A stretch of DNA of 55,205 nt. Origin: an uncultured Planctomycetales bacterium. Its GTDB lineage: Bacteria; Omnitrophota; Gorgyraeia; Aquiviventales; Aquiviventaceae. The position numbers and the translations under genes are program-made. Location of the stretch: assembly GCA_964373835.1 (NCBI GenBank), contig CAYJWN010000003.1, positions 1 to 55,205 on the forward strand. Direction: 5' to 3'. Shown piece after piece: positions 1 through 54,193 of this stretch; within the stretch, counting starts at the first letter, position 1; each line of letters begins with the position of its first letter. A model generated the notes under the pieces. That model was not told the DNA's origin. It did not search any database and saw only the letters and a program-made list of their open reading frames with translations.

Positions 1-27
1 TTCAGCCTTCAGCCTTCAGCCTTCAGC
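1..27. repeat. Tandem heptamer TTCAGCC x4 at window edge, probably one arm of a hairpin element whose partner lies outside the window
   Basis: Direct reading: ttcagcc ttcagcc ttcagcc ttcagcg. Same 7-nt periodic architecture as the complete elements below. Confidence 0.6.
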
Positions 28-46
28 GGCATTGGGCGTTTCTGGA

Positions 47-520
47 GTGCGCCGCATCGCCATTGGCGCCGACCACGGCGGCTTCGCGCTGAAAGCGCAC
101 CTGATTTCCTTGCTCCGGTCCAAGGGGCTCGAGGTGGCGGATCTCGGCACGCATTCGCCGGCACCCTGCGACTACCCGCAGATCGGGTACAAGGTGGCGT
201 CGGCGGTGGCACAAGGCCGGTTTGATCGAGGGGTTCTCTTATGCAAATCCGGCATCGGCATTGCGATCGCCGCCAACAAAGTCCCGGGCATCCGTGCCGC
301 GGTGTGCGCCGATCCGTTCGACGCCGAACGCAGCCGCAGCCACAACGACACCAACGTCGTCGTGCTCGGTGCCGAAAAACTCAGCGACGCGCGCGCGAAA
401 CGGATTTTGGACGCGTGGCTTGCCACCCCGTTTGAGTCCGGGGGGCGCCACGAGCGGCGGGTGAAGCAGATCGCTGCGATCGAACGCGCCGTCCTCAATA
501 AGAGGAAATTATCGCAATGA
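47..520 (+). CDS. rpiB: Ribose-5-phosphate isomerase B
   Basis: RpiB/LacAB motifs [48 protein letters not shown] at 47 gives the usual N-terminus; the ORF opens at TTG 32. Confidence 0.85.
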
Positions 521-652
521 CCAAGCTCCAATTTCCAAATCCCAAACAAGCACCAATGACCAAATTCCAAGCACCAAACAAGACAGTGTTTGGAATTTGG
601 GTATTGGAGTTTGGGATTTGTTTGGAATTTGGGATTTGGGATTTGGGATTTG
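521..652. repeat. Imperfect long hairpin built from 7-nt units (CCAAATC/GCACCAA arm versus GGGATTT/GGAATTT arm)
   Basis: Left arm 521-582 and right arm 589-652 are about 80% complementary around loop acagtg. It starts 1 nt after the rpiB stop and ends 5 nt before the glyA ATG. Sister copy at 9329-9464. Confidence 0.85.
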
Positions 653-656
653 CGTG

Positions 657-1904: not shown

Positions 1905-2030
1905 AGAGCCTCTATCAAAATGACGTTCGTTCAAGGTTCAAGGCTGAAGGTTCAAGGGGGTGTCTCGTGCCTTGAGCCTTGAGCCTTGAGCCTACAACCG
2001 AGCGCCAACGGTCATTCTGATAGGCGCTCT
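1905..2030. repeat. MITE-like element: 20-nt terminal inverted repeats enclosing a heptamer hairpin
   Basis: agagcctctatcaaaatgac (1905-1924) pairs with gtcattctgataggcgctct (2011-2030). Inside, ttcaagg x4 (1930-1957) faces ccttgag x3 (1970-1992). The TIR is related to the pair at 48100/48367. Confidence 0.75.
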
Positions 2031-2045: not shown

Positions 2046-2119
2046 TCAGATGTCAGAAGTCAGAAATCAGAAGTCAGATTTTGACCTCTGCTCTCTGACG
2101 TCTGCCCTCTGACTTCTGA
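2046..2119. repeat. Heptamer hairpin, TCAGAAG family
   Basis: tcagatg tcagaag tcagaaa tcagaag tcaga, loop tttt, then gacctct gctctct gacgtct gccctct gacttct ga. Ends 3 nt before the nrdR ATG. Confidence 0.85.
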
Positions 2120-4158: not shown

Positions 4159-4228
4159 GCTCTAGGCTGTAGGCTCAAGGCTCTAGGCGACTGCCTTTGC
4201 CTAGAGCCTCCAGCCTCAAGCCTAGAGC
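4159..4228. repeat. Heptamer hairpin (CTCTAGG/CTCAAGG units) between convergent genes
   Basis: gctctagg ctgtagg ctcaagg ctctagg c, loop gactgcctttg, then cctagag cctccag cctcaag cctagag c. Confidence 0.85.
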
Positions 4229-9328: not shown

Positions 9329-9464
9329 GCAAATTCCAAGCTCCAAATCCCAAGCACCAAACAAGCACCAAATCCCAAGCACCAAGCACCAAACCGTTTG
9401 GAACTTGGAGCTTGGAACTTGGAATTTGTTTGGAATTTGGGATTTGGAATTTGGTGCTTGGAAC
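9329..9464. repeat. Heptamer hairpin, CCAAAT/GCACCAA family (sister of 521-652)
   Basis: Left arm ...ccaagctccaaatcccaagcaccaaacaagcaccaa... and right arm cttggag cttggaa cttggaa ... ggaattt gggattt ggaattt ggtgctt. Separates the two transketolase subunit genes. Confidence 0.85.
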
Positions 9465-18362: not shown

Positions 18363-20710
18363 GGGAGCTAGCCGCTAAACCGGTACCAGGTACCGGTCTA
18401 CCGTCTCGGTACCTGGTACCGGTCCTGGTCGGTGCCGCGGCGCTCCTGTTGGTGGTTCCTGCGACCGCGCGGGCCGCTGAAGGGGATCGGGTCGTCGCGG
18501 TGGAGGTCAGCGGCGCGAAGACGATCGCCACAGAAACCATCCTCGCGAAAGTCCAAACCAAACCCGGCTCGCCCTATCAGGATACGATCGTGAGCGAGGA
18601 CATCCGCCGGCTGTTCGCCCTCGGCTACTTCACGGATGTGAAGGCCGATGTGGAACAGCTGCCGGAGGGGCTCAAGCTGGTCTTCGTCGTGAAAGAAAAG
18701 CCGACGATCGCCGCCATCCGCGTTGAGGGCCAGCGGGTGCTGGGTAAGGCGAGGGTGTTGGAGCTCTTCGACGTCAAGGCAGGCGCCCTGTACGACGCCC
18801 GAACGGTCAAGCAAGGAGTGGACGTGCTGAAAGCCGAGTACGCCCGCAGAGGGTTTTCGCAGGTTGAGATCGTCTCACAGGTCGAGGTGGATGCGGCGGT
18901 GAACACCGCCACGCTCTATCTCGCCATTGATGAAGGGCCCCGCATGCGAATTCGGCAGGTGCTCGTCGAGGGCAACCAGGCCTTTTCGGATCGACGGATC
19001 CGCAAGCTGCTCAAGACGAAGCGCAAGTGGTGGTTTGCCGCCGGCACCTATGACGAACAGGCGCTGGACGAGGACCTGGAGCGCGTCAGAGCCTTCTATC
19101 GCAAGCACGGCTACCAGGACGTCGAGGTCACGAAGTCGGTCTCCCGCGATCCGACGGGTCGCGGGCTCTATGTGCATCTCACAATCGCCGAAGGGTTGCA
19201 GCACCGCGTGGGCCAGGTGGCGGTCGAGGGGGCGGTGCTGTTTCCTGAGCGCGAGATTCTGCGCGTCGTGACGTTGAAACCCGGCGCCGTCTACAGCACG
19301 GAGGCGCTGCAGGACGATCTGCGGCTGATCAAGCAGTATTACGGGGACCGCGGCTACATCCATGCCGAGGCGACGCCGGATGTGCGGCTGGACCCGGAGA
19401 GCAAGCGGGTCAACCTCACCTACCGTTTGGCGGAGAAGGAGCTGGTGTCCGTCAATCGCGTCGACGTGCAGGGCAACCTGCGGACGAAGGACGTCGTAGT
19501 ACGGCGCGAGCTGCGCATCTATCCCAGCGACCAGTTTGACGGGGCGAAGATCCGCAAGTCGATCGAGCGGCTCTACAACCTCGGCTATTTCGAAGAGGTG
19601 AGCGTCGACACAGAGCCCACGCCGAGTCCCGAGCACGAAGACCTCATCGTGAAGGTGAAGGAGTCGAAGACCGGCAGCTTCAGTTTCGGCGGCGGGTTTT
19701 CCTCAGTGGACCGGCTGGTGGGGCTCATCGAGCTTGAGCAGCGCAACTTCGATCTCAACGGCTTTCCGCACTTTACGGGAGCGGGGCAGGACCTGCGGTT
19801 CCGCGTCGAGGTGGGGACGGTGCGGCGCTTCTTCGACATGTCGTTCACAGAGCCCTGGGCGTTCGGCTACCCGGTGTCGGTGGGGGTGGATGCCTACAAC
19901 CGGACGCGCCTGCGCAGCCGCAACCTGGGGCTTGCCTTTGAGGAAGACCAGCGGGGAGCGGGTCTTCGACTTGTGAAAGAGTTCCTCGATCTCATCAAGG
20001 CGGGCCTGAGCTACCAGCTCTTCCGCACGGAGATTTCCGACGTGGTGGACGAGGCCTCGGCCGATTTGAAAGCAGAGCAGGGGCGCAACACGATCAGCGT
20101 GGGCGGCGTCAGCGTGTCATTCGACAGCCGTGACAACCGGTTTGATCCGACGAAGGGGGTCTTCGCGTTTACCTCCTCGGATCTGGCCGGCGGCATCGTT
20201 GCCGGCGACAAGGATTTTTACCGGGCGCAAGCCGGGGCGAGCCACTACGTCCCGCACGGGGATCGGTTCGTCCTGGAATCGCGCGTGCGGGCCGGTCTCG
20301 TCAAGGCGTATGGCGATTCCGATGAGGTGCCGATTTTCGAGCGGTTCTTCGGCGGCGGCGCCGGGACGATCCGAGGTTTTGAGGAACGGCGCGTGGGCCC
20401 GCGCGATCCCAATTCGAACGATCCCATTGGCGGTGAGGCGATCTTCGTGGGCACGCTGGAAGAGGTGATGACGATCGTGAAGGATGAGCGGGGCCGCTCG
20501 ATTTTGAAGGGGTCGACGTTCGTTGACGTCGGCAATGTCTGGCGCCGCGTGAATGAGTTCGGCGAGAGCTTCAAATCCGGGGCGGGGGTGGGCGCGCGGG
20601 TCAACACCCCCATCGGCCCGCTCCGGCTTGACCTGGGCTTCCCGCTCAACCAGATTGACGATAAGAAGCGCCGGCCGCGGTTTCACTTTAATATCAGCCG
20701 GTCATTCTGA
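18359..20710 (+). CDS. bamA: Outer membrane protein assembly factor BamA
   Basis: Signal peptide LLLVVPATARA-AEG, five POTRA-like repeats, Omp85 barrel ending in ...RFHFNISRSF. ATG overlaps the dnaB stop (ATGA). Confidence 0.9.
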   Translation: MRELAAKPVPGTGLPSRYLVPVLVGAAALLLVVPATARAAEGDRVVAVEVSGAKTIATETILAKVQTKPGSPYQDTIVSEDIRRLFALGYFTDVKADVEQLPEGLKLVFVVKEKPTIAAIRVEGQRVLGKARVLELFDVKAGALYDARTVKQGVDVLKAEYARRGFSQVEIVSQVEVDAAVNTATLYLAIDEGPRMRIRQVLVEGNQAFSDRRIRKLLKTKRKWWFAAGTYDEQALDEDLERVRAFYRKHGYQDVEVTKSVSRDPTGRGLYVHLTIAEGLQHRVGQVAVEGAVLFPEREILRVVTLKPGAVYSTEALQDDLRLIKQYYGDRGYIHAEATPDVRLDPESKRVNLTYRLAEKELVSVNRVDVQGNLRTKDVVVRRELRIYPSDQFDGAKIRKSIERLYNLGYFEEVSVDTEPTPSPEHEDLIVKVKESKTGSFSFGGGFSSVDRLVGLIELEQRNFDLNGFPHFTGAGQDLRFRVEVGTVRRFFDMSFTEPWAFGYPVSVGVDAYNRTRLRSRNLGLAFEEDQRGAGLRLVKEFLDLIKAGLSYQLFRTEISDVVDEASADLKAEQGRNTISVGGVSVSFDSRDNRFDPTKGVFAFTSSDLAGGIVAGDKDFYRAQAGASHYVPHGDRFVLESRVRAGLVKAYGDSDEVPIFERFFGGGAGTIRGFEERRVGPRDPNSNDPIGGEAIFVGTLEEVMTIVKDERGRSILKGSTFVDVGNVWRRVNEFGESFKSGAGVGARVNTPIGPLRLDLGFPLNQIDDKKRRPRFHFNISRSF
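18379..18423. repeat. GGTACCA/GGTACCG hairpin inside the bamA 5' codons
   Basis: accggtaccaggtaccgg (18379-18396) pairs with cggtacctggtaccggt (18407-18423). Read in frame as KPVPGTGLPSRYLVPVL. Same family as 46066-46106. Confidence 0.8.
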
Positions 20711-20725: not shown

Positions 20726-21298
20726 ATGGAGTCTCAGATGTCAGAGGTCAGAGGTCAGAGGTTAGAGGTTAGGCGTCGGATTTTCGCTGTTAGTCTCCTG
20801 GTCTGGGGATTCTGTCTTCTGACATCTGACTTCTGTCCTCTGCTTCACGCGGATGAGCTCAAGATCGGGTATGTGAGCCTGGCGAAGGTGTTTGACAGCT
20901 ATGAGCGGACCAAGGCGACAGAGGCGAGCCTCGAGCAGAAGGCCAAGCAGAAAGACGAGGAGCTGCGCGGACGCGTCGCGGAGCTGAAAAAGTTGCGCGA
21001 GAGCCTGGAGCTGCTGAGCGACCAGGCCCGGGAAACGAAAGCCCGCGAAGCGGAGCAGAAAGCGGATGACCTGCAGCGGTTTCGCGCCAACACCGCACGG
21101 GACCTCACGCGTGAGCGCGACACGTTCGCCAAAGCGATCTTCCAGGATATCCAGCAGGCGATCGATGCGTACGCGAAGGCCAACGGCTTTGCCCTCATCC
21201 TGAAAAAAGAGGACACGGTCCTGTATGCCCAGACAGCCTACGATGTCACCGACGGGGTGCTGCAGCTGTTGAACAGCAAGCAACCCGCCAAACCATGA
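20726..21298 (+). CDS. skp: Periplasmic chaperone Skp (OmpH family)
   Basis: Signal-peptide-like N-terminus ending LLHA-DE, then a coiled-coil Lys/Glu/Ala-rich OmpH body. Canonical position after bamA. Confidence 0.75.
   Translation: MESQMSEVRGQRLEVRRRIFAVSLLVWGFCLLTSDFCPLLHADELKIGYVSLAKVFDSYERTKATEASLEQKAKQKDEELRGRVAELKKLRESLELLSDQARETKAREAEQKADDLQRFRANTARDLTRERDTFAKAIFQDIQQAIDAYAKANGFALILKKEDTVLYAQTAYDVTDGVLQLLNSKQPAKP
20734..20842. repeat. Heptamer hairpin, TCAGAGG family, overlapping the skp signal-peptide codons
   Basis: tcagatg tcagagg x3 ttagagg ttagg (20734-20773), then tctgtct tctgaca tctgact tctgtcc tctg (20811-20842). Confidence 0.8.
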
Positions 21299-40640: not shown

Positions 40641-40716
40641 GAATTTCGGATTTCGGATTTCGGATTTCGGAGTCCGCGTTTTTCAATCCGCAATCCGCAA
40701 TCCGCAATCCGCAATC
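40641..40716. repeat. Heptamer hairpin (ATTTCGG x4 versus AATCCGC x4.5)
   Basis: gaatttcgg atttcgg atttcgg atttcgg ag, loop tccgcgttttt, then caatccg x4 caatc. 6 of 7 positions per unit are complementary. Related fragment ttccgcaatccgaaattc at 5851-5868. Confidence 0.85.
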
Positions 40717-40728: not shown

Positions 40729-41982
40729 ATGGCTCTCGTGTGCGGTGGTGTGATCGGGACGGTCCTCTTCCTGAGTCCAAGCGACGGGGCAGCGAACGAG
40801 GTCCGGGCTGGTGTCGCGCGCGAAGAATTCATCTTGCCGAAGGGCGTGCCGTTGGCCGGGTTCAGCCGTCGGAAAGGCAAGCCATCGAGCGGCCAGCATG
40901 ATCCGGTCGGCGTGCGGGCCTTGGTGGTGCAGGACGCCGACACCACCGTCGCGCTTGTCAGCTGCGATCTCTTGATTGTGGATGAGCGGCTCTTCGAGGC
41001 CGTGCACCGCCGTCTCACGGAGCAGGGCCTCCCGCACGACCTGACGCTGATCCTCGCCGCGACGCACACCCACTCAGGGCCGGGAGCCTATGGGAAGAAG
41101 TTTTTTGAAAAAGTCTCGATGGGCCATTTTGATCCGCGTGTGTTTGACGCGATTGCCGAGTCGGCTGCGCGCGCCGTCGTTCGCGCGCACGCCGGGCTTG
41201 TGCCGATCCACATGGTCTGCCGCAGCGGCACGGCGGATCACCTCGTGACCAATCGCGTTGGACCGCATGGGCCGGTCGATCCGGAGCTGCCGGCGTGCGC
41301 GTTCTATCCGGTGGAGGAGCGCACGCCGATGGCCGTGATCGTGAGCTTCGCCGCGCATCCGACGACGCTGGGGGCATGGAATCAGGAGCTCTCGGCGGAC
41401 TATCCCGGCGTGATCGTCAGGGAAGTGGAGCGCCGCTTTCCGACGGCGACCTGCCTGTTTTTCGCCGGCGCGGTGGGCGATCAAGGGCCGCTCAAGTCGG
41501 GCGAGGGATTCGAGCGGCCCGAGCGCGTCGGCCTTCCCCTGGCCCAACAGGCGATCGCCCTGCTGGAGAACGCCGACCCTGCGCCAGCGCAGGACGTGCG
41601 CGTCCTTCAAGAACGGATGAGGTTACCGCCGGCGGAGGTGCGTCTTGGGCGGCTGACGTTTCCGCGCTGGCTGGGCGCGCAGTTCGTCGATGACGATGCC
41701 ACGCTCTCGCTCCTGACGATGGGCAACGCCGTCTTTTTCGGCGCGCCCTGCGACTTGGCGTCAGCCCTCGGCCAGGAGCTCAAGGCCGCCGCGCGGTCGC
41801 GTGGCCTTGAGCCGGTCATCGTCGGCTTTGCCAGTGACTATGTCGGCTACTGTGTCCCTGAAGCGCTCTACGAGGCGAAGAAATATGAGTCGTCGATGGC
41901 CTTCAACGGTCCGAGAGCCGGCGAGCTCATCGTGCATCGCCTCATAGAAATGCTGGCGCGCGTAATGACACGTGACACGTGA
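40729..41982 (+). CDS. Neutral/alkaline ceramidase-like hydrolase
   Basis: GVPLAGFSRRKG...HDPVGVRALVV, LVSCDLLIV, ATHTHSGPG. ATG 40729 with signal-like MALVCGGVIGTVLFLSP; the ORF opens at 40618 inside the repeat. Confidence 0.65.
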   Translation: MALVCGGVIGTVLFLSPSDGAANEVRAGVAREEFILPKGVPLAGFSRRKGKPSSGQHDPVGVRALVVQDADTTVALVSCDLLIVDERLFEAVHRRLTEQGLPHDLTLILAATHTHSGPGAYGKKFFEKVSMGHFDPRVFDAIAESAARAVVRAHAGLVPIHMVCRSGTADHLVTNRVGPHGPVDPELPACAFYPVEERTPMAVIVSFAAHPTTLGAWNQELSADYPGVIVREVERRFPTATCLFFAGAVGDQGPLKSGEGFERPERVGLPLAQQAIALLENADPAPAQDVRVLQERMRLPPAEVRLGRLTFPRWLGAQFVDDDATLSLLTMGNAVFFGAPCDLASALGQELKAAARSRGLEPVIVGFASDYVGYCVPEALYEAKKYESSMAFNGPRAGELIVHRLIEMLARVMTRDT

Positions 41983-43252
41983 CATGATGGACATCTGCAG
42001 GGTTGTGACAGGTAACACGAAGGTGCTCATCTCCATTGCGTTTTTACTTGTCACCTGCCACCTGCCACCTGTCACCACTGATGCGGCTCAGGTTGAATAC
42101 CACGAGGGCCTGCCCATCGTCCATCTTACCGGCAGTCCCTACGAGTTGGGCCGTCAGCATGGCGAGGCGCTGCGGGAGGAAGTGCGCCGGTCGATCGGCC
42201 AGGTGTTGCGGTACTTTAGAAGCTACTTGAAGATCCCCCTCGTGCGCTCCATGGCGGCGAACTGGTGGCTCGATACCGCGTGGGCCAAGGCCGCGTCCTT
42301 CATCCCATTGGACTACGTGGAAGAGCTCAAAGGGCTGTCCGATGGATCAGGGGTGCCGCTGCGCGAGCTGTACCGGCTGCATGCCATCCCGGATCGCACC
42401 TACTCCTGCTCCAACTTTGCCGCGTGGGGGCGAGCGACGGCAGGCGGAGGGCTCATCCACGTCCGCAACCTGGACTGGAACATTGGCGCGGGCATCCAGC
42501 AATTCGCCGCCATCTTTGTCGTGCAGCCGACCGGCAAACACGCGTTTGTCAACGTCGGGTGGGCAGGATTTGTCGGAGTGCTCACCGGGATGAACGACGC
42601 GACAATCTCCATCGGCCAGATCGGCGCGGACACGGTCGATGCGACCTTCAGGGGCGAGCCCATGGTGTTTCTCATGCGTCGGGTCCTTGAAGAAGCCGAT
42701 GATCTCGAGGAAGCCGCCTCGCTGATCGTGAAGGCCCGTCGCACCGTCGGCGTCAACTACGTGGTCGCTGATGCCAAGGCGAAAGGAGCCATCGCGCTTG
42801 AGACCACGCATCAGCATGCCCGCGTCTTTCGTGCCGACGATGTCGCGGAACATGCAATCCCCTACGCGCGGCCGATCCGCGACGCCGTGTTCAGAGCCGA
42901 TACCGCCATCGATCCCACGATCCGCGACCGGCAACTCGCCTCTGAGGGAGATCCTGCGCGTGCGGGCTTGGAAGAGCCGGGGGGATCAGCCTACAGCATC
43001 CGCTATCTCGGCCAGGCCGCCGGGATCCTGGCCCACTACGGAACCCTTGATGCGACGACCGCCCAAGACATCGCGCGGAACGTCGCGCCAAGCTCCAACA
43101 TCCAAAGCGTGGTGTTCGCCTGGCCGGCTCTGTGGGTCGCCAACGCCCAGGGCACTCAGCCTGCAGCGCAGCGGCACTACCATCAGCTTGACGTGCGGCG
43201 GCTCTTGGAACGAGCAAAGCAGTCGGTGAGGAAGGCGATCAGCTCAGGCTGA
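41972..43252 (+). CDS. Peptidase C45 / acyl-CoA:6-APA acyltransferase-like Ntn hydrolase
   Basis: GSPYELGRQHGEALREEV, nucleophile context YSCSNFAAWG, IHVRNLDW. Start is GTG 41972 or ATG 41984/41987. Confidence 0.65.
   Translation: MTRDMMDICRVVTGNTKVLISIAFLLVTCHLPPVTTDAAQVEYHEGLPIVHLTGSPYELGRQHGEALREEVRRSIGQVLRYFRSYLKIPLVRSMAANWWLDTAWAKAASFIPLDYVEELKGLSDGSGVPLRELYRLHAIPDRTYSCSNFAAWGRATAGGGLIHVRNLDWNIGAGIQQFAAIFVVQPTGKHAFVNVGWAGFVGVLTGMNDATISIGQIGADTVDATFRGEPMVFLMRRVLEEADDLEEAASLIVKARRTVGVNYVVADAKAKGAIALETTHQHARVFRADDVAEHAIPYARPIRDAVFRADTAIDPTIRDRQLASEGDPARAGLEEPGGSAYSIRYLGQAAGILAHYGTLDATTAQDIARNVAPSSNIQSVVFAWPALWVANAQGTQPAAQRHYHQLDVRRLLERAKQSVRKAISSG
42047..42076. repeat. Tandem heptamer CACCTGC/CACCTGT inside the signal-peptide codons of the C45 gene
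   Basis: cttg tcacctg ccacctg ccacctg tcacc, read as LVTCHLPPVTT. Only a weak partner arm upstream (gtgacaggt at ~42005). Confidence 0.6.
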
Positions 43253-45901: not shown

Positions 45902-46066
45902 CCCCCCGATCATCTTGACGACGACCCGTGTCCTGCGCCGGCCGTCAAGCGCTGCATAGCAGATCCGCTCCCACGGGCCGAGATCAAGCTTGCCGTTGGT
46001 GATCGGGAGCACGGCCTGGTGGCCGATGAGCGTGCGCTTCAGATGCGCGCTGCTTCGTGTGCTCAC
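45902..46066 (-). pseudogene. 5'-truncated remnant of a YjbQ/UPF0047 family gene
   Basis: SSAHLKRTLIGHQAVLPITNGKLDLGPWERICYAALDGRRRTRVVVKMIGG aligns with only the last ~50 aa of the ~138-aa family. There is no room for the N-terminal part before hairpin 46066-46106. Confidence 0.5.
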
Positions 46067-46106
46067 GGTACCAGGTACCGACCAAGGGCGTCGGTACCTG
46101 GTACCG
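46066..46106. repeat. GGTACCA/GGTACCG hairpin (same family as 18379-18423)
   Basis: cggtaccaggtaccgac, loop caagggc, gtcggtacctggtaccg. Perfect 17-bp stem 4 nt beyond the ispH stop, with no T-tract. Confidence 0.85.
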
Positions 46107-46109
46107 GTT

Positions 46110-47054
46110 TCATGGTACCGGTTTCAGGGTGAGCTCCGCAGGCAGGCCGAAGCTGACGTCTTCGCGGGTGAGCTCCCATTCCTCCACCTGGGTGGCGCCC
46201 AGGCGCTTGAGCGCTTCCACCACTTCTTGGACCAGATGCTCCGGCGCGGAGGCGCCGGAGGTGACCCCGACGCAGCGCACACCCTCAAACCAGGCCGGGT
46301 TAATCTCGCGGGCGTCGTTGATGAGGTAGGCGCGGCGTCCGGCGTCTTCCGCCACTTCGGTCAGGCGGATGGAGTTGGAGCTGTTCTTCGCGCCGATCAC
46401 GAGGATGGCCTCCGCTTCCTTGGCGATGGCCTTGACGGCGTTCTGCCGGTTCTGCGTGGCGTAGCAGATGTCGTCCTTGGACGGCGCAACGAGCTTCGGA
46501 AACCGCGCCTTCAGGACGTCGATGATGGCGCGGGTGTCGTCGACGCTGAGCGTGGTCTGCGTGATCACCGCGACCTTGTCGGGGTTGGGCACGCTGACCG
46601 TCTTGGCATCGTCGACGGTCTGGATGAGCCGGATCGCCTCCGGCGCCTCGCCCATAGTACCTTCGACCTCCTCATGGCTTTCATGCCCGATCAGCAGCAT
46701 GGTGTAGCCCTCGTGGGCGAACCGCTTGGCCTCCACATGGACCTTCGTGACGAGCGGGCACGTCGCATCGATGACGTTGAGCCGCCGGGCCTTGGCCGCC
46801 TGGTGGACAGCCGGCGACACCCCGTGGGCGCTGAAAATGGTGGTGGAGTCCGCGGGCACGCTCGTCAGTTCATCGACGAAGATCGCGCCCTTTTGCCGCA
46901 GCGCATTCACCACATGCGGGTTGTGCACGATCTCTTTGCGGACGTAGACCGGACCCGGGAACCGCTCAAGCGCTCGCTCGACCACCTCGATGGCCCGCTC
47001 GACGCCCGCGCAGAACCCCCTGGGTTTGGCCAAAATCACTTTGGTGATAGCCAT
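46110..47054 (-). CDS. ispH: 4-hydroxy-3-methylbut-2-enyl diphosphate reductase
   Basis: MAITKVILAKPRGFCAGVERAIEVVERALE, HNPHVV, conserved Cys triad context. Confidence 0.95.
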   Translation of the reverse strand: MAITKVILAKPRGFCAGVERAIEVVERALERFPGPVYVRKEIVHNPHVVNALRQKGAIFVDELTSVPADSTTIFSAHGVSPAVHQAAKARRLNVIDATCPLVTKVHVEAKRFAHEGYTMLLIGHESHEEVEGTMGEAPEAIRLIQTVDDAKTVSVPNPDKVAVITQTTLSVDDTRAIIDVLKARFPKLVAPSKDDICYATQNRQNAVKAIAKEAEAILVIGAKNSSNSIRLTEVAEDAGRRAYLINDAREINPAWFEGVRCVGVTSGASAPEHLVQEVVEALKRLGATQVEEWELTREDVSFGLPAELTLKPVP

Positions 47055-47129: not shown

Positions 47130-48113
47130 TCAGTTCGTCGGCGCGAGTCTTTCTCTAAAGAAACGCAGGCTGGCGTACTTGAGATACGGCAGCGAGCAGT
47201 AGGCGGTGTAATGGCCGAACGGCAGGAACACGATTTCGGGCCGGCCGAGCGCCCGCCAGAGCCGAAGCGAATTGGCTCTCCCAATCGTCCGATCGGCGAG
47301 GGCGATGAACATCAACAGGTTTCGGGGATCGACGTAGGGCGCCAGACGGATCGGATCGGTCTGCACGTGCTCGCGGAGCAGCCGTTCCATCGTCGCAAGA
47401 TCCATCTGATTGCGGGCTAAATACGTGGTCCGGGGTTTTGTGATGAGGCGGTCTGTTGACGTGATGAGGATGTCCGGGATGCTCCCGCCGGCAAGCGCCA
47501 CGACGTGCACCCGCAGGCGCGGCTCAACCGCCGCGGCCATCACGCTGGCGATGCCCCCCATGCTGACGCCGAAGCTTCCCATCCGCCGGGGATCCACGCG
47601 CTCATGGGAGGCCATCCAGTCGACCACCTGCCGAATTCGAATCACCCCCTGCCGCAAGAGCAGTTCCAGATGCGCCACCTCGTGGTCCGGCGAAATCTTC
47701 AGCGTCTTGCGGTGGATGAGTGCGACGTGAAACCCGCGGCGGGCCAGGTAGCGGCAGATGCCGCGTTCGAGCGGATAGTCACCCCCGAGAATCGCATTGA
47801 ACACGATGGCAGGACGGCGGCCCGGTGCCGTCGATTCAAACCACTCCACCTCGACGGTCGGTTCCGCCGGCTCAAACCCGGAGACGGACAGCGGAAACCG
47901 AACGAGATATTCCCGAAACGCTCCGCGGTCCGTCACCAGTTCCTGCGTGGCGGCCGGCGCGTGGACTGGATAGTCATAATACGCCGCGAGTTCAGGAGGC
48001 AGCGGGTGGGGCGTGGGCGCGGTCTTCCGCAGCGGCGCGTAGGCGCAGCCATCAGCACTAAGCACCAGGCCAGCACTAAGCACTAAGCAATAAGCACTTA
48101 GAGCTCCTATCAA
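47130..48113 (-). CDS. Alpha/beta hydrolase (dienelactone hydrolase / prolyl oligopeptidase-like), probably exported
   Basis: Nucleophile elbow GVSMGG, ...IALADRT..., FGHY. Start proposed at in-frame TTG 48113, giving MIGALSAYCLVLSAGLVLSADGC. The 569-aa ORF upstream of that is translated repeat. Confidence 0.65.
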   Translation of the reverse strand: MIGALSAYCLVLSAGLVLSADGCAYAPLRKTAPTPHPLPPELAAYYDYPVHAPAATQELVTDRGAFREYLVRFPLSVSGFEPAEPTVEVEWFESTAPGRRPAIVFNAILGGDYPLERGICRYLARRGFHVALIHRKTLKISPDHEVAHLELLLRQGVIRIRQVVDWMASHERVDPRRMGSFGVSMGGIASVMAAAVEPRLRVHVVALAGGSIPDILITSTDRLITKPRTTYLARNQMDLATMERLLREHVQTDPIRLAPYVDPRNLLMFIALADRTIGRANSLRLWRALGRPEIVFLPFGHYTAYCSLPYLKYASLRFFRERLAPTN

Positions 48114-48523
48114 AATACCCCGCGGCCGCGCTGGGCCGAGATGCCAGGCCCGCAAGGCGCGAGGAGCGTGGCGTACTCGAAGAGGAGTACGCGAGCGACG
48201 AGCAACGTGGCGGGCCGACGCAGATCGGCCCAGCCTGTTGTCGACCAATGGGTTGCGGCGGCCGGGCCCGCGGCCGGCGTTGCTCCTCCTCGGCGTAGTG
48301 CTGCGACTACGCCGTCGTCGTCGCGCCTCGGCCGCGAGGCCCGGGCGCGCGCAACGCGGCTCGCGCGGTATTTTGATAGGAGCTCTAAGTAAGAGCCACG
48401 AGGGGCCTCTTTGGGAGCCGAACAACCTGACCCGCCCTCCCTTCTTAGTGCTTAGTGCTGTGTGCTGAGTGCTTGATGGTGCTGTGTGCTGAGTGCTTGA
48501 TGGTGCTGTGTGCTTAGTGCTGA
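48051..48523. repeat. Composite ~470-bp palindrome: heptamer arms, 20-nt TIR pair and 247-bp GC-rich core
   Basis: cactaag-type heptamers (48051-48099) face ttagtgc-type repeats (48445-48523, including a 24-nt unit x2.9). agagctcctatcaaaatacc (48100-48119) pairs perfectly with ggtattttgataggagctct (48367-48386). The core halves are themselves imperfectly complementary. Confidence 0.8.
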
Positions 48524-49776
48524 CGGGCATTCGTTCCGTCGTGCAAAGGGCTGTCGACGGTGACCGCGGCCGGCCGGACGTAAATCGGGTTGGAGAAGAT
48601 CCATGGCTTGCCGTGGCGCGCGGCCTCCAGGCGATACACGCCCGGCGTCGTGACGGGAATCCGCCACACCTGCCCGATGGTGGTCTCGATCGGCCGCCCG
48701 TCTTTGAACAACGTGAGGTTGGCCGGGGCCGGCAGGTACGTGGTGAGCTGCAGCCCAGGCGCGAGCGCCACCTCATCCCCCATGACGCCGAGCACGCGCT
48801 CGCCGTCCTCCGCGGCGAAGGAGAAGTCTTTGGCATCACCGATGATGCTCATGGTGAAATAGGCGTGCCCGCGGCGCAGCGCCGAATAGATGCCCTGAGG
48901 AGTCAGCGTCTTCGACGGAATGAGCAGGTGGGTGCGGACGAGCTGGAACATGTCCCGATAGGGCGCGAACTTCAGTCCCATGAGATGAAACTCGTGCGCG
49001 TCGGTTGAGCCGATCCCGACCACCTGCCCATGCTGCCGGATCAGCTCATCCCATTTGGCCAGCGGGTCATACGGCCGGTCGAGGATGGAAAAATAAAACG
49101 GCTCGGCCGGCGCGGTGAGCGTCCAGAGCACCAGGCGCGCGCGGTTCTCATCGAGCGTATCATGGGCCACATTGTACGCTTCGATGCCGGTGAACCCGAT
49201 GACCGACCAGTTCTTCCACCGCCCATTCGCGAAGTAGGGGTGCGCGATGAAGCCCAGGCCTCCCTGCCGTGTGACCTCGTCGATGACCTGCTGGGTGGTG
49301 AGCTTATGGCGGTCGATCTCCTGCGTGACGTTCAGCGCCAGGTAATGGCCGTCCTTCGCGGAGACCTCCATACCGACCAGGACGAGGGTGCCGCCGTGCC
49401 AGCCCTGCCGGCCATCGCGCAGCGCCTGGAGGTTGTTGTGCTCGGTCACGATCACGTAGTCCAGACGCTGCGCGTTGGCGGTGCGCACGACGTCCTCAAA
49501 CGTCCCGTGGGCATCATGGGAGTACGTCGTGTGGACGTGGATCACGCCGGCATAGTCGGCGTAGCCGTCATCCAGCAGGTCGGTCGCTTTGGCGCCTCCC
49601 TGGGGCAGCGGTTTTCCGCGTGGCTGCGTGAGCACCGCGCAGCCCGTTGTGACGAGGCCAAGTAGGAAGCATAGCGTCAACCAACGGACAGAAGTCAGAA
49701 GACAGAAGTCAGAAATCAGAAAGTTCTGACCTCTGACCTCTGACCTCTGACCTCTGAATCTGGCGATGGACCTCAT
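48514..49776 (-). CDS. PHP-domain metallophosphoesterase-like protein, probable lipoprotein
   Basis: PHP motif VIHVHTTYSHDAHG...VIVTEHNN. Lipobox LVTTGC. ATG 49776 overlaps the pmbA stop (ATGA). Confidence 0.75.
   Translation of the reverse strand: MRSIARFRGQRSEVRGQNFLISDFCLLTSVRWLTLCFLLGLVTTGCAVLTQPRGKPLPQGGAKATDLLDDGYADYAGVIHVHTTYSHDAHGTFEDVVRTANAQRLDYVIVTEHNNLQALRDGRQGWHGGTLVLVGMEVSAKDGHYLALNVTQEIDRHKLTTQQVIDEVTRQGGLGFIAHPYFANGRWKNWSVIGFTGIEAYNVAHDTLDENRARLVLWTLTAPAEPFYFSILDRPYDPLAKWDELIRQHGQVVGIGSTDAHEFHLMGLKFAPYRDMFQLVRTHLLIPSKTLTPQGIYSALRRGHAYFTMSIIGDAKDFSFAAEDGERVLGVMGDEVALAPGLQLTTYLPAPANLTLFKDGRPIETTIGQVWRIPVTTPGVYRLEAARHGKPWIFSNPIYVRPAAVTVDSPLHDGTNARQH
49687..49757. repeat. Heptamer hairpin, TCAGAAG/TCAGAGG family, inside the PHP gene 5' codons
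   Basis: gacagaag tcagaag acagaag tcagaaa tcagaa, then ttctgac ctctgac x3 ctctga. On the - strand most mismatches become G-U pairs. Confidence 0.85.
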
Positions 49777-51176
49777 GCTTCGGAGCGCCCGGTAAACGTG
49801 AACGTCGCCAGATGCAGCGTCGGCATGACCGTGCAGCCGAGGTCCTGGCTGGGATCGGCCACGAGCCGGCGCTCCTTCGAGATCCCCACCACCCGGCTGA
49901 ACGCTTCAAGCACGCTCTGGGTAAACCGCATGGTGGTGAGGGGGCTTGTGAGGCGTCCGTCTTCAATCAGGAACGTCCCTTCGCGTGTCAGTCCGGTCAT
50001 CAGCGCCTCGCGTGGATTGAGCAGGCCGTTCACGTAGTGAAAGCGGGGAATCAGCAGGCCGCGCCGACAGCGGCGGATCATCTCGGCGGTTGTCTGTTTC
50101 CCCGGGCTCATGCCAAGATGCAGGGGAACGGGCCCCTCCGTGTCATCAGCCGGCATGGCATGCCCGGTCGAGGGATGGCCGAAGCGCGCCCCGTACGTGG
50201 AATCATAGACGATATTCGCAGCCGTGCCGCGGTCGATCAACACCACCCTCTGTTTGGGGGCGCCCTCAAAGTCAAATGGCATGCGCAGGGCGGAGGGATC
50301 GTTGCCGTCGTCGTAGATGGTGATCTGCCGGTCCATGACCTGCTCGCCCATCCGGCCGGCCATGAGGCTGGTGCGCTCCTCCACGCTCTTCGCGCCAAAC
50401 GCGGTAGACCCCAGCCAGCCGACCAGCTCGCCGACCGCTTCGGGCTCGAGGATGACCTCATAGGTGCCCAGCGGCAGGGTGACGGGCTGCTCTTGACGCA
50501 GCGCCTGGGTGAGCGAGCGCCTGAGCAGCTCCTCAAGGTCGAGCCGCTCCACATCCTGGTGCGTCCCGCTGGCGTAGCCGGAGAGCTTCCGGTACATGGT
50601 CACCAGCTTCGCGCCGGCCACCGTCGAGGCGGCGTAGGAGGCGACGCCGGCGGAGTTGACCACGGCAAACTCATCTTCGCCGGTGATCATGGAGCCCGCC
50701 AATGCCGCGCCGGCTCCCTGACAGAGCTGGAACAGCCGCTTGAGCGACGCCACGCACGCGGCCGGGCTTGAGCGGGCGGTGGCGGGAAGATAATCGTCGT
50801 GTCTCCGAATGCGATGCTTCGCCGGCAGCTCCGGCAGGTCGTTTTGCGGCGGGGAGTGCCGGGCGATTTCAAGCGCCGCGCCCAGGCAGCGCGCCAGACT
50901 CGTCGGATCCAAGGTGTCAACGCTGGCGACCCCGGCGCGCTCATCCTCAATGACCTTCACGGTGATGTTGACGCTCTCTTGGATAAGGTTCTGGTGGATG
51001 GCCTCGTAGGCGAAGCGAAAGACGCGCCGGGCTCTTGCGTGCGCGCAGGCGCTGACGCCGTCGGCCTTCGTCCGCTTGACCAGTTTGGAGAGCGCCGAGA
51101 GCAGCGTTGCTTCACCGACCCTCGCTTGTGGCGTCCCCCGCGCCCCGCGCCCCACGCCCCGCGCCCCGTGCTTCAT
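49773..51176 (-). CDS. pmbA: TldE/PmbA family metalloprotease subunit
   Basis: TldD/PmbA fold-length protein (467 aa) with ...GTFLIEDG... and C-terminal TFTGRS. ATG overlaps the tldD stop (ATGA). Confidence 0.75.
   Translation of the reverse strand: MKHGARGVGRGARGTPQARVGEATLLSALSKLVKRTKADGVSACAHARARRVFRFAYEAIHQNLIQESVNITVKVIEDERAGVASVDTLDPTSLARCLGAALEIARHSPPQNDLPELPAKHRIRRHDDYLPATARSSPAACVASLKRLFQLCQGAGAALAGSMITGEDEFAVVNSAGVASYAASTVAGAKLVTMYRKLSGYASGTHQDVERLDLEELLRRSLTQALRQEQPVTLPLGTYEVILEPEAVGELVGWLGSTAFGAKSVEERTSLMAGRMGEQVMDRQITIYDDGNDPSALRMPFDFEGAPKQRVVLIDRGTAANIVYDSTYGARFGHPSTGHAMPADDTEGPVPLHLGMSPGKQTTAEMIRRCRRGLLIPRFHYVNGLLNPREALMTGLTREGTFLIEDGRLTSPLTTMRFTQSVLEAFSRVVGISKERRLVADPSQDLGCTVMPTLHLATFTFTGRSEA
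51135..51169. repeat. Tandem heptamer GCCCCGC x5 (single arm) in pmbA 5' codons
   Basis: cccccgc gccccgc gccccac gccccgc gccccgt, read on the - strand as HGARGVGRGARG. Confidence 0.75.
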
Positions 51177-52636
51177 CGAGCGGCGGCGACGGTGACGCCG
51201 TCGAACTTGGCGTAGGAGCTGCCGTGGCCGACGTGCATCAGCTGCATCGGCTCGCCCTTAGCGCAGTTCGACACGCCCCACAGCTGCCAGTCTTCCCGGC
51301 GTCCCACGCCGGTGCAGCGGCCCCAGAACGCCGGCGTGATGCCGGTGTAGAGGGGGTTCTTGACGATCGCACCCCGCCGGCCGTGTTCAATCTCCCAGCC
51401 GATTTCAGTGGTGAACTGAAAGTTCAAGCGCCGGTCGTCGATGGACCAGCTCTTATTGGTCGACAGGAGGTAGCCGTGCTTGACATCGCGCATCAACTCC
51501 TCCAGCGTGCCCTCGCCCGGCTCAAGATTGACGTTGGTCATCCGAACAAGCGGCGGGACACTCCACCCCTCGGCCCGCATCGCCCCGCCGCTTGCGGGCA
51601 GATTGAGTCGAGCGGCTGATTCGCGTGAGCTCAGATAGCCGACGAACAGACCGTTGCGCACGAGGTCAACCCGCTGGGCCGGCACCCCCTCGTCGTCGAA
51701 TCCGAAACTGCCGACGCCGCCGGGCACGGTGGCATCCGCCACGATGTGCACGAGCCGCGATCCGTAGTGCGTGCGGTTGAGACAGTCGGGGGTCAGGAAG
51801 CTGCCGCCCGCGTAGCTCAGCTCCTGGCCGAGGGCACGGTCCAGCTCGACCGGATGCCCGCATGATTCGTGGAGCTGCATCACGACCTGCGTCGGATGCA
51901 GGATGATCGTGGTCTCTCCCGCCTTCGGGGGATCGGCCCGCAGCAAGAGCCGTACCTCCTCCTGGGCGGTTTTGGCGCCACCGACGAGATCTAGCTGCTT
52001 CACATACTCAAACCCTGCTTGGGCCAGCGCCCCATGGTGCGAGTTGGGGAAGCTCCGGTGCTGCACATCCCCGCCGTTTTGGGCGACGACTTCAAGACCG
52101 GCGCCGCTTTCAATCATATGTTGCTCGATCTGGGCGCCCTCGGTGGAACAGAACAGCTGATGGCGCTTGTGGAAGTCCATGTGGCTGGTCGCCCGCTTGA
52201 TGGCATCGGGTCCCATCAGTGCCGTGTTCGACCACAGGAGGTAGTCGAGCTTTTTTGACAACGGCACCTCGAACGGATCGATGGTGAACGGGGAGGTGTA
52301 GCGCGCCTTGACCGGCTTGACAGGCGCGAGCGGTCGTGGCTGCTTGTTGATCGCCGCGGAGGCCTTCGCCAGTCCGATCGCCTGGCTGACGGCACGCGTG
52401 AGGTGGGGCCGCGTCAGGTGCGGCGTTGACGCGAAACCCCATGAACCCTTGATGAGCACCCGGATGCCGATCCCCGCGCTTTCGGAGAGGCTGATGGAGG
52501 AGGCGCGGCCCTGCTCAGCGACGAGGCTTTCATGCAGCAGCCGCTCCACGCGGACATCGGCATAGTCGACCCCGCGGCGTTTGAGATCGCGGATGAGAGA
52601 CGCGGCAAGGTCGCGAGGGAGGGTCCGGTCAGCCAT
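51173..52636 (-). CDS. tldD: TldD family metalloprotease
   Basis: VDYADVRVERL...GIGIRVLIKGSWGFAST, HESCGHP (HExxxH-type site), ...GSSYAKFDG. Confidence 0.85.
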   Translation of the reverse strand: MADRTLPRDLAASLIRDLKRRGVDYADVRVERLLHESLVAEQGRASSISLSESAGIGIRVLIKGSWGFASTPHLTRPHLTRAVSQAIGLAKASAAINKQPRPLAPVKPVKARYTSPFTIDPFEVPLSKKLDYLLWSNTALMGPDAIKRATSHMDFHKRHQLFCSTEGAQIEQHMIESGAGLEVVAQNGGDVQHRSFPNSHHGALAQAGFEYVKQLDLVGGAKTAQEEVRLLLRADPPKAGETTIILHPTQVVMQLHESCGHPVELDRALGQELSYAGGSFLTPDCLNRTHYGSRLVHIVADATVPGGVGSFGFDDEGVPAQRVDLVRNGLFVGYLSSRESAARLNLPASGGAMRAEGWSVPPLVRMTNVNLEPGEGTLEELMRDVKHGYLLSTNKSWSIDDRRLNFQFTTEIGWEIEHGRRGAIVKNPLYTGITPAFWGRCTGVGRREDWQLWGVSNCAKGEPMQLMHVGHGSSYAKFDGVTVAAAR

Positions 52637-52759
52637 GGACGCTCACTTTACCACAATCGGAGTTCAGGCCACAAGCGCAGGCTTCAGGCGTTTGGGTGCA
52701 GCCTGCAGCCAGTGGAGAAGTTTGTGTCGCAGGCACACCTTAGTATAAAATGGCGCCTG

Positions 52760-54151
52760 ATGGATTACATCCCTCGCTCGGTGCTTGACCGCGCGTTTGG
52801 CCGTCTCGGACGCCGCACCCTGCGCGACCGGCTGCACGCCATGCGCGCGCTGGCCGAGGTGCGGGGCGTCCGGTATCTCGATGACAGCGGGCGGCCCCGC
52901 ACGATTGAAATCGCGCTCAAGCCCTGGGTCCTGACAAGCGAGCAGCTGTGGTGTTTTCACCACATGGCCCAAGACCTTACCGGCGCGCTCCTGCGGGTGT
53001 CCCAGCTCTATGCCCAGATCCCCGCCATCCGGTCGGTCGTGCCGTTTGAGCCGGCGCGGGAAGCGTGGATGCGATTGACCACGCACCCTCGCAGCCATCC
53101 GCTCGCGGTGATCGGTCGGCTCGACTCGACGGCGATTTACGACCACGCCGGCTGGCAGCGCGCGTTCCGGATGCTGGAGCCCAACGCGGTCGGGGTGGGC
53201 GGCGTCCACTACGCGCCGACCAGCTGCTCGATCACCATGGATGTGGTCGGGGACGTGCTCATGGACGCCTTGCCGGGGCGCGCCATCACCGCAACCCCGG
53301 ATCCCAGGCAGCTGCTCGTCGATGAACTGCGCGCGGTCGCGCGGCGGCTGGGCCGTCCGCTGCGCGGCATCGCGCTGATTGAGAATACCGACTACACGAC
53401 CGGCACCGACGAGTTTCAAGAACTGGCGCGCTATCTCATCAGCCGCGGCCTGCGGGCGGTGGTGGTCGATCCGCGCGCGCTGCGCCTGTCGCGCGGACAG
53501 CTCCTGGTCGGGCGCACGCCGGTGGATCTGCTCTACCGCGACTCGGAGCTCGCGGAGTTCGTGGAGATGGAAGCCGGTGGCCATCGACTGACGGCGCTGC
53601 GTGAGGCGATTCGGCAGGGTCGGCTCATTTCAGGCCTGACCTGGGAATTCGATCAAAAATCGGCATGGGAGATTTTCACCGACCGGCGCTACGCTCGCCA
53701 TTTCACCGCGTCGCAGCGTCGGCTCTTCCGCAACCATCTCCTCTGGACGCGATTGGTCCGTGAGGACAAGGTATCTGATCCCGCCGGACGCCTGGTGGAT
53801 TTGCCGTCGTTCATTCGCCGCCACCGCGCGCGGCTGGTGCTGAAGCCCAACACGCTCTTCGGCGGGGAAGGGGTGGTCATTGGGCGCACCGTCAGCCAGC
53901 GCGCCTGGGAACAGGAGCTGCATCGGGCGCTGCGCGGCCGCAAGCGGTATGTCGTGCAGGCGCTGGCCAGGATCCCGTCAGACTATTTTCCATCGTTGGC
54001 CGATGGCGGCGTGCGATGGCACAAGCGGCACGTCGTCTCCGGCTTCTTCTTCAGCTCCTCAGGGATCGGCCTCATCGGGCGGTTCTCCGGCCGTCCCGTC
54101 GTGAACGTCTCGCAGGGCGGCGGCCTCATTCCTGCGCTCTGGGTGCATTAA
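52760..54151 (+). CDS. ATP-grasp superfamily amidoligase-like protein (glutathionylspermidine synthase / circularly permuted type)
   Basis: Pre-ATP-grasp-like GRLDSTAIYD...FRMLEPNAVGVGG and LVLKPNTLFGGEGVVIG. Divergent from tldD. -10 TATAAA at ~52744. Confidence 0.5.
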   Translation: MDYIPRSVLDRAFGRLGRRTLRDRLHAMRALAEVRGVRYLDDSGRPRTIEIALKPWVLTSEQLWCFHHMAQDLTGALLRVSQLYAQIPAIRSVVPFEPAREAWMRLTTHPRSHPLAVIGRLDSTAIYDHAGWQRAFRMLEPNAVGVGGVHYAPTSCSITMDVVGDVLMDALPGRAITATPDPRQLLVDELRAVARRLGRPLRGIALIENTDYTTGTDEFQELARYLISRGLRAVVVDPRALRLSRGQLLVGRTPVDLLYRDSELAEFVEMEAGGHRLTALREAIRQGRLISGLTWEFDQKSAWEIFTDRRYARHFTASQRRLFRNHLLWTRLVREDKVSDPAGRLVDLPSFIRRHRARLVLKPNTLFGGEGVVIGRTVSQRAWEQELHRALRGRKRYVVQALARIPSDYFPSLADGGVRWHKRHVVSGFFFSSSGIGLIGRFSGRPVVNVSQGGGLIPALWVH

Positions 54152-54152
54152 G

Positions 54153-54193
54153 TGCAGTGACTGGGTGACTGAGTGACTGCGTAACTGGGTGAC
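54153..54193. repeat. Tandem octamer TGGGTGAC x5 (single arm)
   Basis: tgcagtgac tgggtgac tgagtgac tgcgtaac tgggtgac, directly after the ATP-grasp stop. Confidence 0.75.

Follow-up and report, generated by a model that had tools for sequence, protein, structure and literature searches.

Dispersed palindromic heptanucleotide repeats at gene junctions and in coding sequences of a Candidatus Omnitrophica-type genome

Hairpins with arms built of tandem 7-nt units recur at gene junctions of contig CAYJWN010000003.1, and this locus raises the question of whether they are selected RNA structures of polycistronic transcripts or repeat DNA that has settled there. The window, which is the whole stretch of DNA that was analysed, comprised 55,205 bp with a G+C content of 63%. 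Pfam scans of approximately 55 open reading frames (ORFs) showed a housekeeping gene content that included rpiB, glyA, nrdR, hisG, a split transketolase, ribosomal proteins, dnaB, bamA, skp, lpxC/fabZ, lpxA, lpxI, a rhomboid gene, ispH and tldD/pmbA. The closest relatives by GlyA (78-85% amino acid identity) and BamA (up to 88%) were groundwater metagenome-assembled genomes (MAGs) of Candidatus Omnitrophica/Omnitrophota, some of which are recorded as Planctomycetales. Loci of related genomes that were compared with the window are labelled L001-L005, L081, L082 and L161-L163. For strain-level variants, exact-protein look-ups with three window proteins produced no match and a metagenome scan produced no relative above 79% amino acid identity.

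Tandem arrays were located with Tandem Repeats Finder, which produced dozens of period-7 rows, and with a scored period scan of our own making for periods 4 to 12. The scan showed 16 strong period-7 tracts in 55 kb and none for each of the periods 4-6 and 8-12, while 100 block shuffles of the window, used as the null model, produced approximately 0 tracts at every period. The excess of period 7 over shuffled controls on which the original prediction depended was thus confirmed. Pairing was assessed as the presence of a complementary array within 250 nt against the expectation from shuffled units. Such a partner was found for 14 of the 18 arrays of the window (1.9 expected), for 11 of 18 in the relatives (2.6 expected) and for 47 of 70 in unrelated environmental loci (9.6 expected), and hence the proposed single architecture of 7-nt units with complementary arms is far beyond chance. 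In unrelated environmental bacterial loci totalling 1.7 Mb, tandem repeats likewise had period 7 more often than any other (50 of 80 tracts), and array density in the window was 5-16 times that of the comparison loci.

Twelve loci folded as a single long stem consisting of a left array, a short loop and a roughly complementary right array, with the two arms near-equal in length and folding energies of -30 to -65 kcal/mol for the elements taken without flanks. Stems had 17-50 pairs and the elements had a G+C content of 38-65%. Other loci initially listed as hairpins were different: 1-27 and 51136-51168 are single arrays, 41966-42076 is a degenerate pair, and the arrays 48041-48098 and 48447-48523 are complementary but lie 350 nt apart. 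A further single array, 54157-54194, which falls at the end coordinate of the original prediction, has a period of 8. At least 10 unit types share the one architecture, in agreement with the earlier view that no single mobile sequence is involved. The description of hairpins at most gene boundaries was too wide, as approximately 15 of about 53 boundaries (about 28%) were occupied. The elements do adjoin stop and start codons within co-directional strings of genes as had been described, but several lie inside reading frames; about 9 of the 17 listed elements were fully intergenic and the remainder overlapped reading frames. A cmscan of the whole window against Rfam matched a tRNA and a c-di-GMP-I-GGC riboswitch and nothing else, so that no Rfam family matched the heptamer elements at the gathering threshold. 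Only two canonical G-quadruplex motifs were found in the window, at 20579-20600 (+) and 51143-51167 (-), and the latter corresponds to the (CGGGGCG)n heptamer array, read in the sense of a PmbA/TldD-like gene.

Comparison of the units showed that they differ from locus to locus only in part, with three unit families occurring 2-3 times within the window, and that they are not specific to their loci as had been claimed, since TCAGARG, CCAAATC and ATTTCGG/AATCCGC recur at unrelated loci in MAGs of the clade. The elements at 521-652 and 9330-9464 were 84% identical over approximately 130 nt, including irregularities that break the period and a 25-nt higher-order unit, and the same CCAAATC family was found at the lpxA-lpxI junction of L163. 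The TCAGARG/CYTCTGA family had three copies in the window (2046, 20734 and 49689) and was found elsewhere in L002 (twice), L004 and L161, while the GGTACC stem occupied two window sites, 18379 and 46066. The ATTTCGG/AATCCGC hairpin of 40643-40716 was found again at ssb-rpsR in L163 and as a single array within purL of L002, that is, at three unrelated loci in three genomes. In addition, the PurL gene of L003 carried two near-identical in-frame copies of one hairpin, with identical hairpin loops. Judged by these shared sequences, the elements are dispersed repeat families and not independent inventions. Two candidate shared motifs outside the arms were rejected: ACGATG after several right arms is probably start-codon context, and GGTCATTCTGA at 2010 and 20700 is a chance or coding match.

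Conservation of the elements at orthologous gene boundaries was lacking, and alignment showed presence/absence variation, replacement of units and one-arm versus two-arm states. When the window was compared with L001-L005, the rpiB-glyA hairpin was present in the window and L002 only, and the glyA-nrdR hairpin in the window, L002 and L004 only, with compact junctions in L001, L003 and L005; at both boundaries the units differed between genomes. At lpxI-rhomboid, L161 has a single array orthologous to the right arm of the window element, and the window has approximately 55 nt more (left arm and loop). At rhomboid-trmA, the hairpins of the window and of L163 are built of different units, and the genes of L161 overlap. 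An element with changed units was kept at the 5' end of skp (window, L161 and L162) and at the lpxI-rhomboid right arm, while many sites were empty in relatives. The GGTACC hairpin of the window BamA was missing from a BamA of 88% identity. Finally, L082 showed synteny over 20 kb with approximately 76% amino acid identity and no heptamer arrays, and unrelated palindromes of the CCCACCACCTG type occupied several of the same junctions.

The palindromes of the relatives were noted as a separate kind. GATCCCACCACCTG-like palindrome arms were found at gene junctions of L082 (9600-10010 and 10660-10900), L081 (150-330), L161 (1190-1370) and L002 (11370-11480), with the start/stop junction sequence (GATGATCCC) duplicated at both ends in the manner of a target-site duplication, and one L082 copy encloses an insert of approximately 300 nt with a possible small ORF. 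The GATGATCCC duplication was confined to the CCCACCACCTG palindromes of relatives and was not found at heptamer elements.

Elements inside coding sequence were found in several genes. In Skp, two start codons, 20726 and 20738, are the only ones that lie in frame and 5' of the hydrophobic region, and therefore the TCAGAGG hairpin encodes most of the signal peptide. Part of the Skp signal peptide is also encoded by arrays in L161 and L162, where the units differ, and the arms of the L161 array have drifted from complementarity (z = -0.4), while in L082 and L163 Skp has an ordinary N-terminus free of heptamer arrays. The AGTGCTT array (48041-48098, - strand) encodes the hydrophobic signal-peptide core of an S9-like peptidase (ALSAYCLVLSAGLVLSA), and four further reading frames had arrays in their 5' ends. 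In translation, a purine-rich arm produces charged residues and a pyrimidine-rich arm hydrophobic ones, which would fit the n-region and h-region layout of a signal peptide. In PurL, in-frame arrays were found in L002, L003 and L004 at the same two loop positions, adding 10-30 residues relative to short-loop PurLs. Open frames through the elements are not surprising in themselves, as most random heptamers have no stop codon in all frames, and the coding argument thus rests on the Skp start codons, the PurL alignments and the signal peptides of BamA, Skp and the peptidase. The L003 PurL (71-3886) was also unusual in its length of 1271 aa, approximately 500 aa above the PurL of L004; the extra segment starts at Cys and its last residues are ...VTHN, after which comes a Cys. 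Inteins have such ends, and the segment is an intein candidate.

Overall, a common generating mechanism, as originally suggested, is the best reading of these results. With moderate confidence, the elements are considered to be fast-evolving, dispersed palindromic heptanucleotide-repeat DNA, similar to repetitive extragenic palindromic (REP) and short tandemly repeated repetitive (STRR) sequences, which would grow by slippage, become palindromes by template switching and be tolerated at permissive sites. In the proposed sequence of events, a 7-nt unit would expand and contract by replication slippage with each arm homogenised separately, as suggested by arms that are internally uniform yet differ from each other at one position per unit (at 40643-40716 each arm is 100% homogeneous, with one mismatch per unit between arms). 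Inverted duplication or intrastrand template switching, comparable to quasipalindrome correction, would then turn a single array into a palindrome with two arms; the one-arm and two-arm states at one orthologous boundary and the rule of pairing across phyla are the indications for this step. Whole elements would be copied to new sites by some route, and here the families with common irregularities at non-orthologous loci, within and between genomes, show that dispersal occurs. Copies would survive where they are least harmful, namely at stop/start junctions of operons, convergent gene ends, coding regions of signal peptides and N-termini, and surface loops; the elements do occupy such permissive sites, and a selective filter may have left them there. 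A self-folding insert at a stop/start junction would keep both codons adjacent in the folded mRNA, which would explain the tolerance of palindromes at this position. The RNA stem-loops and the peptide properties are proposed to be by-products of the DNA elements, some of them co-opted, as in the Skp signal peptide.

Several points weigh against this account. No mobilising enzyme (transposase, RAYT or Y1 transposase) was found by the Pfam scans, which covered one 55-kb contig only, and neither a target-site duplication around the paralogous copies (521, 9330 and the TCAGARG copies) nor a common terminal motif in the flanks of the heptamer elements was found. Slippage and template switching are deduced from static sequences, and the choice of period 7 is left unexplained. 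Variant units were mirrored between arms weakly better in register than after a 7-nt shift, an effect too weak to prove whole-arm copying. Furthermore, the same boundaries were hit repeatedly across genomes (lpxI-rhomboid, rhomboid-trmA, dnaB-bamA and the 5' end of skp), the purine-rich arm came first relative to the gene in all six aligned TCAGARG copies (three in the window and three in L002 and L004), and an A-rich 5' arm was found in 14 of 16 hairpins. Boundaries that are hit repeatedly and an orientation that is consistent within families could instead mean selection for the hairpin.

Such selection is the main rival explanation, in which the hairpins would be selected RNA elements of polycistronic mRNA, and we regard it as rather unlikely. 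They would mark sites for RNase III or for processing, block 3' exonucleases, cause pausing or termination without a U-tract, or keep a stop codon beside the next start codon and so enforce translational coupling. Selection of structure and not of sequence would explain the differing units. The very stable stems, with the folding energies given above, agree with such a role, as do the precise filling of the stop-to-start gap (elements start 0-15 nt downstream of the stop and end 3-12 nt upstream of the start), the two elements at convergent gene ends where terminators are expected, the unrelated palindromes at the same boundaries in other genomes of the clade and the family-consistent orientation relative to transcription; in addition, transcript stabilisation or translational coupling has been proposed for the STRR hairpins of cyanobacteria (PMC2670836). 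However, RNA-level selection was not evident. A sense strand was defined for 11 hairpins, of which five were more stable as sense RNA, four as antisense RNA and two equally stable as either, and the asymmetry of G-U against A-C showed no consistent strand preference of G-U pairs among the hairpins. In close relatives the boundaries that carry elements here are compact or the genes overlap, so the hairpin can be dispensed with, and the same families also include arrays with a single arm. The in-frame copies in purL, bamA, skp and other frames cannot have an intergenic RNA role. The elements have no T-tracts, as the original prediction had correctly stated, although the genome has canonical terminators, of which one was confirmed at 37644-37684; the sole match of the terminator scan inside an element was a partial stem within 40647-40676. 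The structure-specific function that had been offered as an alternative to a common mechanism is therefore disfavoured at the RNA level by the lack of a sense-strand folding advantage, the in-frame copies and the turnover at orthologous boundaries.

A purely local origin, in which a resident heptamer grows by slippage and is duplicated locally in inverted orientation without any movement, and in which shared units reflect mutational or compositional preference, appears distinctly unlikely. It would agree with the many unit types that occur only once in the window, with the absence of target-site duplications and transposase from what was searched, and with the transition from one arm to two arms in situ at lpxI-rhomboid. 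Heptamer arrays as the commonest tandem repeat in unrelated phyla would point to a general polymerase-level bias, and the same heptamer prevalence is reported by Mrazek 2007 as summarised in PMC4679880. It is not easily reconciled with the shared non-periodic irregularities and 25-nt higher-order unit of 521 and 9330, the two near-identical hairpins with identical hairpin loops in the L003 PurL, the occurrence of the ATTTCGG/AATCCGC pair together with its arm mismatch at three unrelated loci in three genomes, or the GGTACC stem at both of its window sites. A role at the DNA level, in which the arrays would bind a protein that recognises 7-nt repeats or a cruciform or G-quadruplex, such as a nucleoid, replication or repair factor, is considered very unlikely. 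It would be comparable to the binding of gyrase and IHF by REP and BIME elements, and the strict 7-nt period in so many different sequences and phyla would fit a fixed molecular ruler; one array is capable of forming a G-quadruplex, a Nostoc preprint speculates on a heptamer-binding partner, and CspB binds heptamer repeats with one protein per heptamer, as cited in PMC4679880. Against this, no sequence is conserved between families for a protein to read, no candidate protein was identified and close relatives can do without the elements. It is extremely improbable that short-read metagenome assembly produced the elements as artefacts: the contig does start within an array and one L002 element lies at a scaffold gap with duplicated flanks, but the arms of 30-70 nt are below read length, the same architecture was found in independent MAGs from different studies and assemblers, and the elements in coding sequence leave the reading frame open and are included in the called protein. 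A bolder extension of the dispersed-repeat account, that heptamer-armed palindromes form a clade-wide and perhaps multi-phylum mobile class defined by structure, spread by a machinery that measures 7 nt and acting as a regular source of new coding sequence, is held to be unlikely. With a purine-rich 5' arm and a pyrimidine-rich 3' arm, an in-frame copy would encode a charged segment and then a hydrophobic one, in effect a Sec signal peptide ready for use. If true, this class would supply signal peptides as in Skp (three genomes) and loop insertions as in PurL (three genomes).

The coordinates of the elements are listed in Table 1.

Table 1. Heptamer elements and related arrays of the window, with their position relative to genes
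Position	Strand	Element	Context
1..27	+	Single array (TTCAGCC) x 3.9; probably the 3' arm of an element truncated by the contig end	Very start of contig, 19 nt 5' of the likely rpiB GTG at 47 (RpiB Pfam match)
521..652	+	CCAAATC/TTTGGGA-family hairpin, 132 nt	0 nt after rpiB stop, 4 nt before glyA ATG at 657
1929..1993	+	Hairpin (GTTCAAG)n / (GCCTTGA)n	3' of glyA; nested within a second inverted repeat, 1905-1921 / 2014-2030, motif AGAGCyyCTATCAAAAT
2046..2119	+	TCAGARG/CYTCTGA-family hairpin	Ends 3 nt before nrdR ATG at 2123
4159..4228	.	Hairpin (GCTCTAG)n / (CTAGAGC)n	Fills gap of convergent genes (response regulator ending 4151, SurA-like PPIase ending 4232); terminator-like position, T-tract absent
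9330..9464	+	CCAAATC-family hairpin, 135 nt	15 nt after stop at 9314, 12 nt before ATG at 9477
18379..18429	+	GGTACC-type hairpin	Inside BamA reading frame, encodes signal-peptide n-region (MRELAAKPVPGTGLPSRYLVPVLVGAAALLLVVPATARA); BamA ATG at 18359 overlaps dnaB stop (ATGA)
20734..20846	+	TCAGAGG-family hairpin	Encodes most of Skp/OmpH signal peptide (MSEVRGQRLEVRRRIFAVSLLVWGFCLLTSDFCPLLHA|DELKIGY)
24304..24387	+	Hairpin (AGAGTTC)n / (AACTCNC)n	lpxI frame ends in left arm at 24332; right arm, orthologous to single array in L161, ends 4 nt before rhomboid ATG at 24392
25074..25185	+	Hairpin (AAGTCAA)n / (ACTTTTG)n	4 nt after rhomboid stop, 8 nt before ATG at 25194 (TrmA-like methyltransferase)
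40643..40716	+	Hairpin (ATTTCGG) x 4 / (CAATCCG) x 4.7	5' end of ORF 40618-41982 (ceramidase-like); 12 nt upstream of it if the ORF starts at alternative ATG 40729
41966..42076	+	Degenerate pair (TGACACG) x 2.7 + (CACCTGC) x 3.6	(CACCTGC) x 3.6 encodes part of hydrophobic N-terminus of next protein
46066..46130	.	GGTACC-type hairpin (46066-46105), then period-14 array; stem sequence identical to 18379-18429	Between convergent genes ending 45868 (+) and 46110 (-), the latter ispH/LytB
48041..48523	-	Composite nested palindrome: (AGCACTA)n 48041-48098, complementary array 48447-48523, 350 nt apart; inner 29-nt inverted repeat 48096-48124 / 48362-48390, 97% complementary	
49689..49757	-	TCAGAGG-family hairpin, gene-relative orientation that of + strand copies	Between ATG 49776, which overlaps upstream stop (ATGA), and lipoprotein-like signal sequence of PHP-domain protein
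51136..51168	-	Single array (CGGGGCG) x 4.7, no partner, G-quadruplex-capable	Just after ATG at 51176, PmbA/TldD-like gene; translates as GARGVGRGARG
54157..54194	+	Period-8 array (GTGACTGG) x 4.8, neither heptamer nor hairpin	5 nt after stop at 54151

Other observations concerned the surroundings of the elements. The transketolase is split into an N-terminal gene (8487-9314) and a C-terminal gene (9477-10427) in the same reading frame, with only a TGA stop and the 135-nt hairpin, which has no in-frame stop, between them; relatives have a 9-23 nt spacer or overlapping genes at this junction. The (TGACACG) x 2.7 array at 41966-41982 places TGA in all three frames and is thus a three-frame stop, and the ceramidase-like gene ends at the third TGA. 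A second repeat family, (CTT)AGAGCyyCTATCAAAAT, was present as two inverted pairs (1905-1921 with 2014-2030, and 48100-48116 with 48370-48386). One pair encloses a heptamer hairpin, and the other has heptamer arrays on its outside and a G+C-rich stretch of 237 nt on its inside, a nesting that is reminiscent of BIME mosaics. In L002, a scaffold gap (N run) at approximately 9810-9910 falls exactly at a heptamer hairpin with the right-arm sequence repeated on both sides; heptamer elements disrupt short-read scaffolding, and the window contig itself begins within an array.

Elsewhere in the window, the c-di-GMP-I-GGC riboswitch aptamer (RF03167, 69.6 bits, E = 1.7e-14) was located at 44121-44222 (+), directly 5' of a 545-aa ORF (44231-45868) with no Pfam match. 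An ORF at 2581-3144 (+), directly 3' of nrdR, showed NTP_transf_5 / AbiEii (type IV toxin nucleotidyltransferase) similarity that covers the C-terminal two thirds of the profiles only, so it may be a truncated toxin gene. Finally, at 43301-43954 (-) an RHH/VapB-like antitoxin ORF (43652-43954) adjoins a fragmentary DUF6036 nucleotidyltransferase-like ORF (43301-43576), and these may be a degraded toxin-antitoxin pair.

With these results, heptamer repeats that form hairpins are known not only from cyanobacteria and Xanthomonas but also from uncultured Omnitrophota, and similar paired arrays were present in loci of MAGs labelled Acidobacteriota and Vicinamibacterales. As approximately two thirds of heptamer arrays in unrelated bacteria are paired, an explanation of why the unit is seven must also cover palindrome formation. 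Gene callers and annotators should expect such elements in N-termini and loops, and the results call for caution against reading every stable intergenic stem-loop as a regulatory RNA. They also provide an example, concrete and open to testing, of repeat DNA that was recruited to encode signal peptides.

The original prediction knew of no description of tandem heptamers with complementary arms, but such elements have been published. In filamentous cyanobacteria, 7-bp STRR that form hairpins between genes transcribed together, hupS-hupL for instance, are described as 'not unusual' (PMC2670836), and approximately 70-75 inverted pairs of GGGAATC arrays are present per genome in Xanthomonas (Rehm et al. 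2015, PMC4692102). The cyanobacterial STRR (hupS-hupL and nif intergenic regions) are similar to the window elements in their tandem 7-nt units with several families per genome, in their position mostly between co-transcribed genes with complementary arrays that fold as hairpins, and in a structure that is kept while the sequence varies strongly between close relatives (PMC2670836; title of Jackman & Mulligan 1995, cited therein). They differ in that the host here is a 63% G+C Candidatus Omnitrophica-type MAG and not a heterocystous cyanobacterium, and in that elements are here also in frame and encode signal peptides. The consensus units of STRR1-3 are CCCCAGT, TTGGTCA and CAACAGT, and none of these was found in tandem in the window. 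The GGGAATC arrays of Xanthomonas are alike in their high-GC host and in that most of them are convergent inverted pairs that could fold into stem-loops or cruciforms; they lie between genes and are transcribed, and their length and sequence vary between related species while the single or paired type is usually kept (PMC4692102). However, they consist of essentially one G-rich unit with G-quadruplex potential, whereas at least 10 units with one G-quadruplex-capable array were found here, and 83% of their sites are conserved between two species, whereas turnover is much higher here.

More generally, heptanucleotides are the most abundant long class of simple sequence repeats in many prokaryotes (Mrazek, Guo & Shah 2007, as summarised in PMC4679880 and PMC4692102), and according to the same summaries they are attributed to polymerase slippage, with 7 nt as a proposed contact length. 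The prevalence of period 7 in our scan of 1.7 Mb of unrelated loci agrees with that work as summarised; in these summaries the arrays are treated as direct repeats, and paired palindromes and family dispersal do not figure. The TAACTGA repeats of Beggiatoaceae and Microcystis (MacGregor 2015, PMC4679880) are alike in that arrays end a few nt from start codons and a few lie inside ORFs and are translatable, and a role in translation has been suggested for them. They differ as one unit that is gene-oriented and nearly always direct (one inverted case), whereas many units with the paired palindrome as the rule were found here. Dispersed (GATAGRA)n satellites are present in Chloroflexus (PMC6749651). 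None of the named published heptamer units was found in tandem in the window.

The elements also resemble REP/REPIN/BIME elements and miniature transposable elements with inverted repeats (MITEs) as short imperfect palindromes in dispersed families that lie at gene ends inside operons and form nested mosaics with other palindromes. REP elements can stabilise upstream mRNA. REP and REPIN differ as a unique, non-periodic palindrome of 20-40 nt with a conserved 5' GTAG-like tetranucleotide and an extragenic position, whereas the elements described here have periodic arms and coding copies and showed no conserved tetranucleotide of this kind, and MITEs differ by their signature of terminal inverted repeats and target-site duplications, which the heptamer elements lack. 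Intrinsic terminators differ as well, with an expected G+C-rich stem of 5-15 bp followed by a U-tract against 17-50 pairs and no T-tract here. No description of in-frame, signal-peptide-coding heptamer elements was found in the literature, and this coding of signal peptides appears, from the reading frames, to be the twist on the known kind and the most interesting residue of the analysis. Overall, the palindromic heptamer repeats of the window are a known kind of element in a new lineage, the Omnitrophota.

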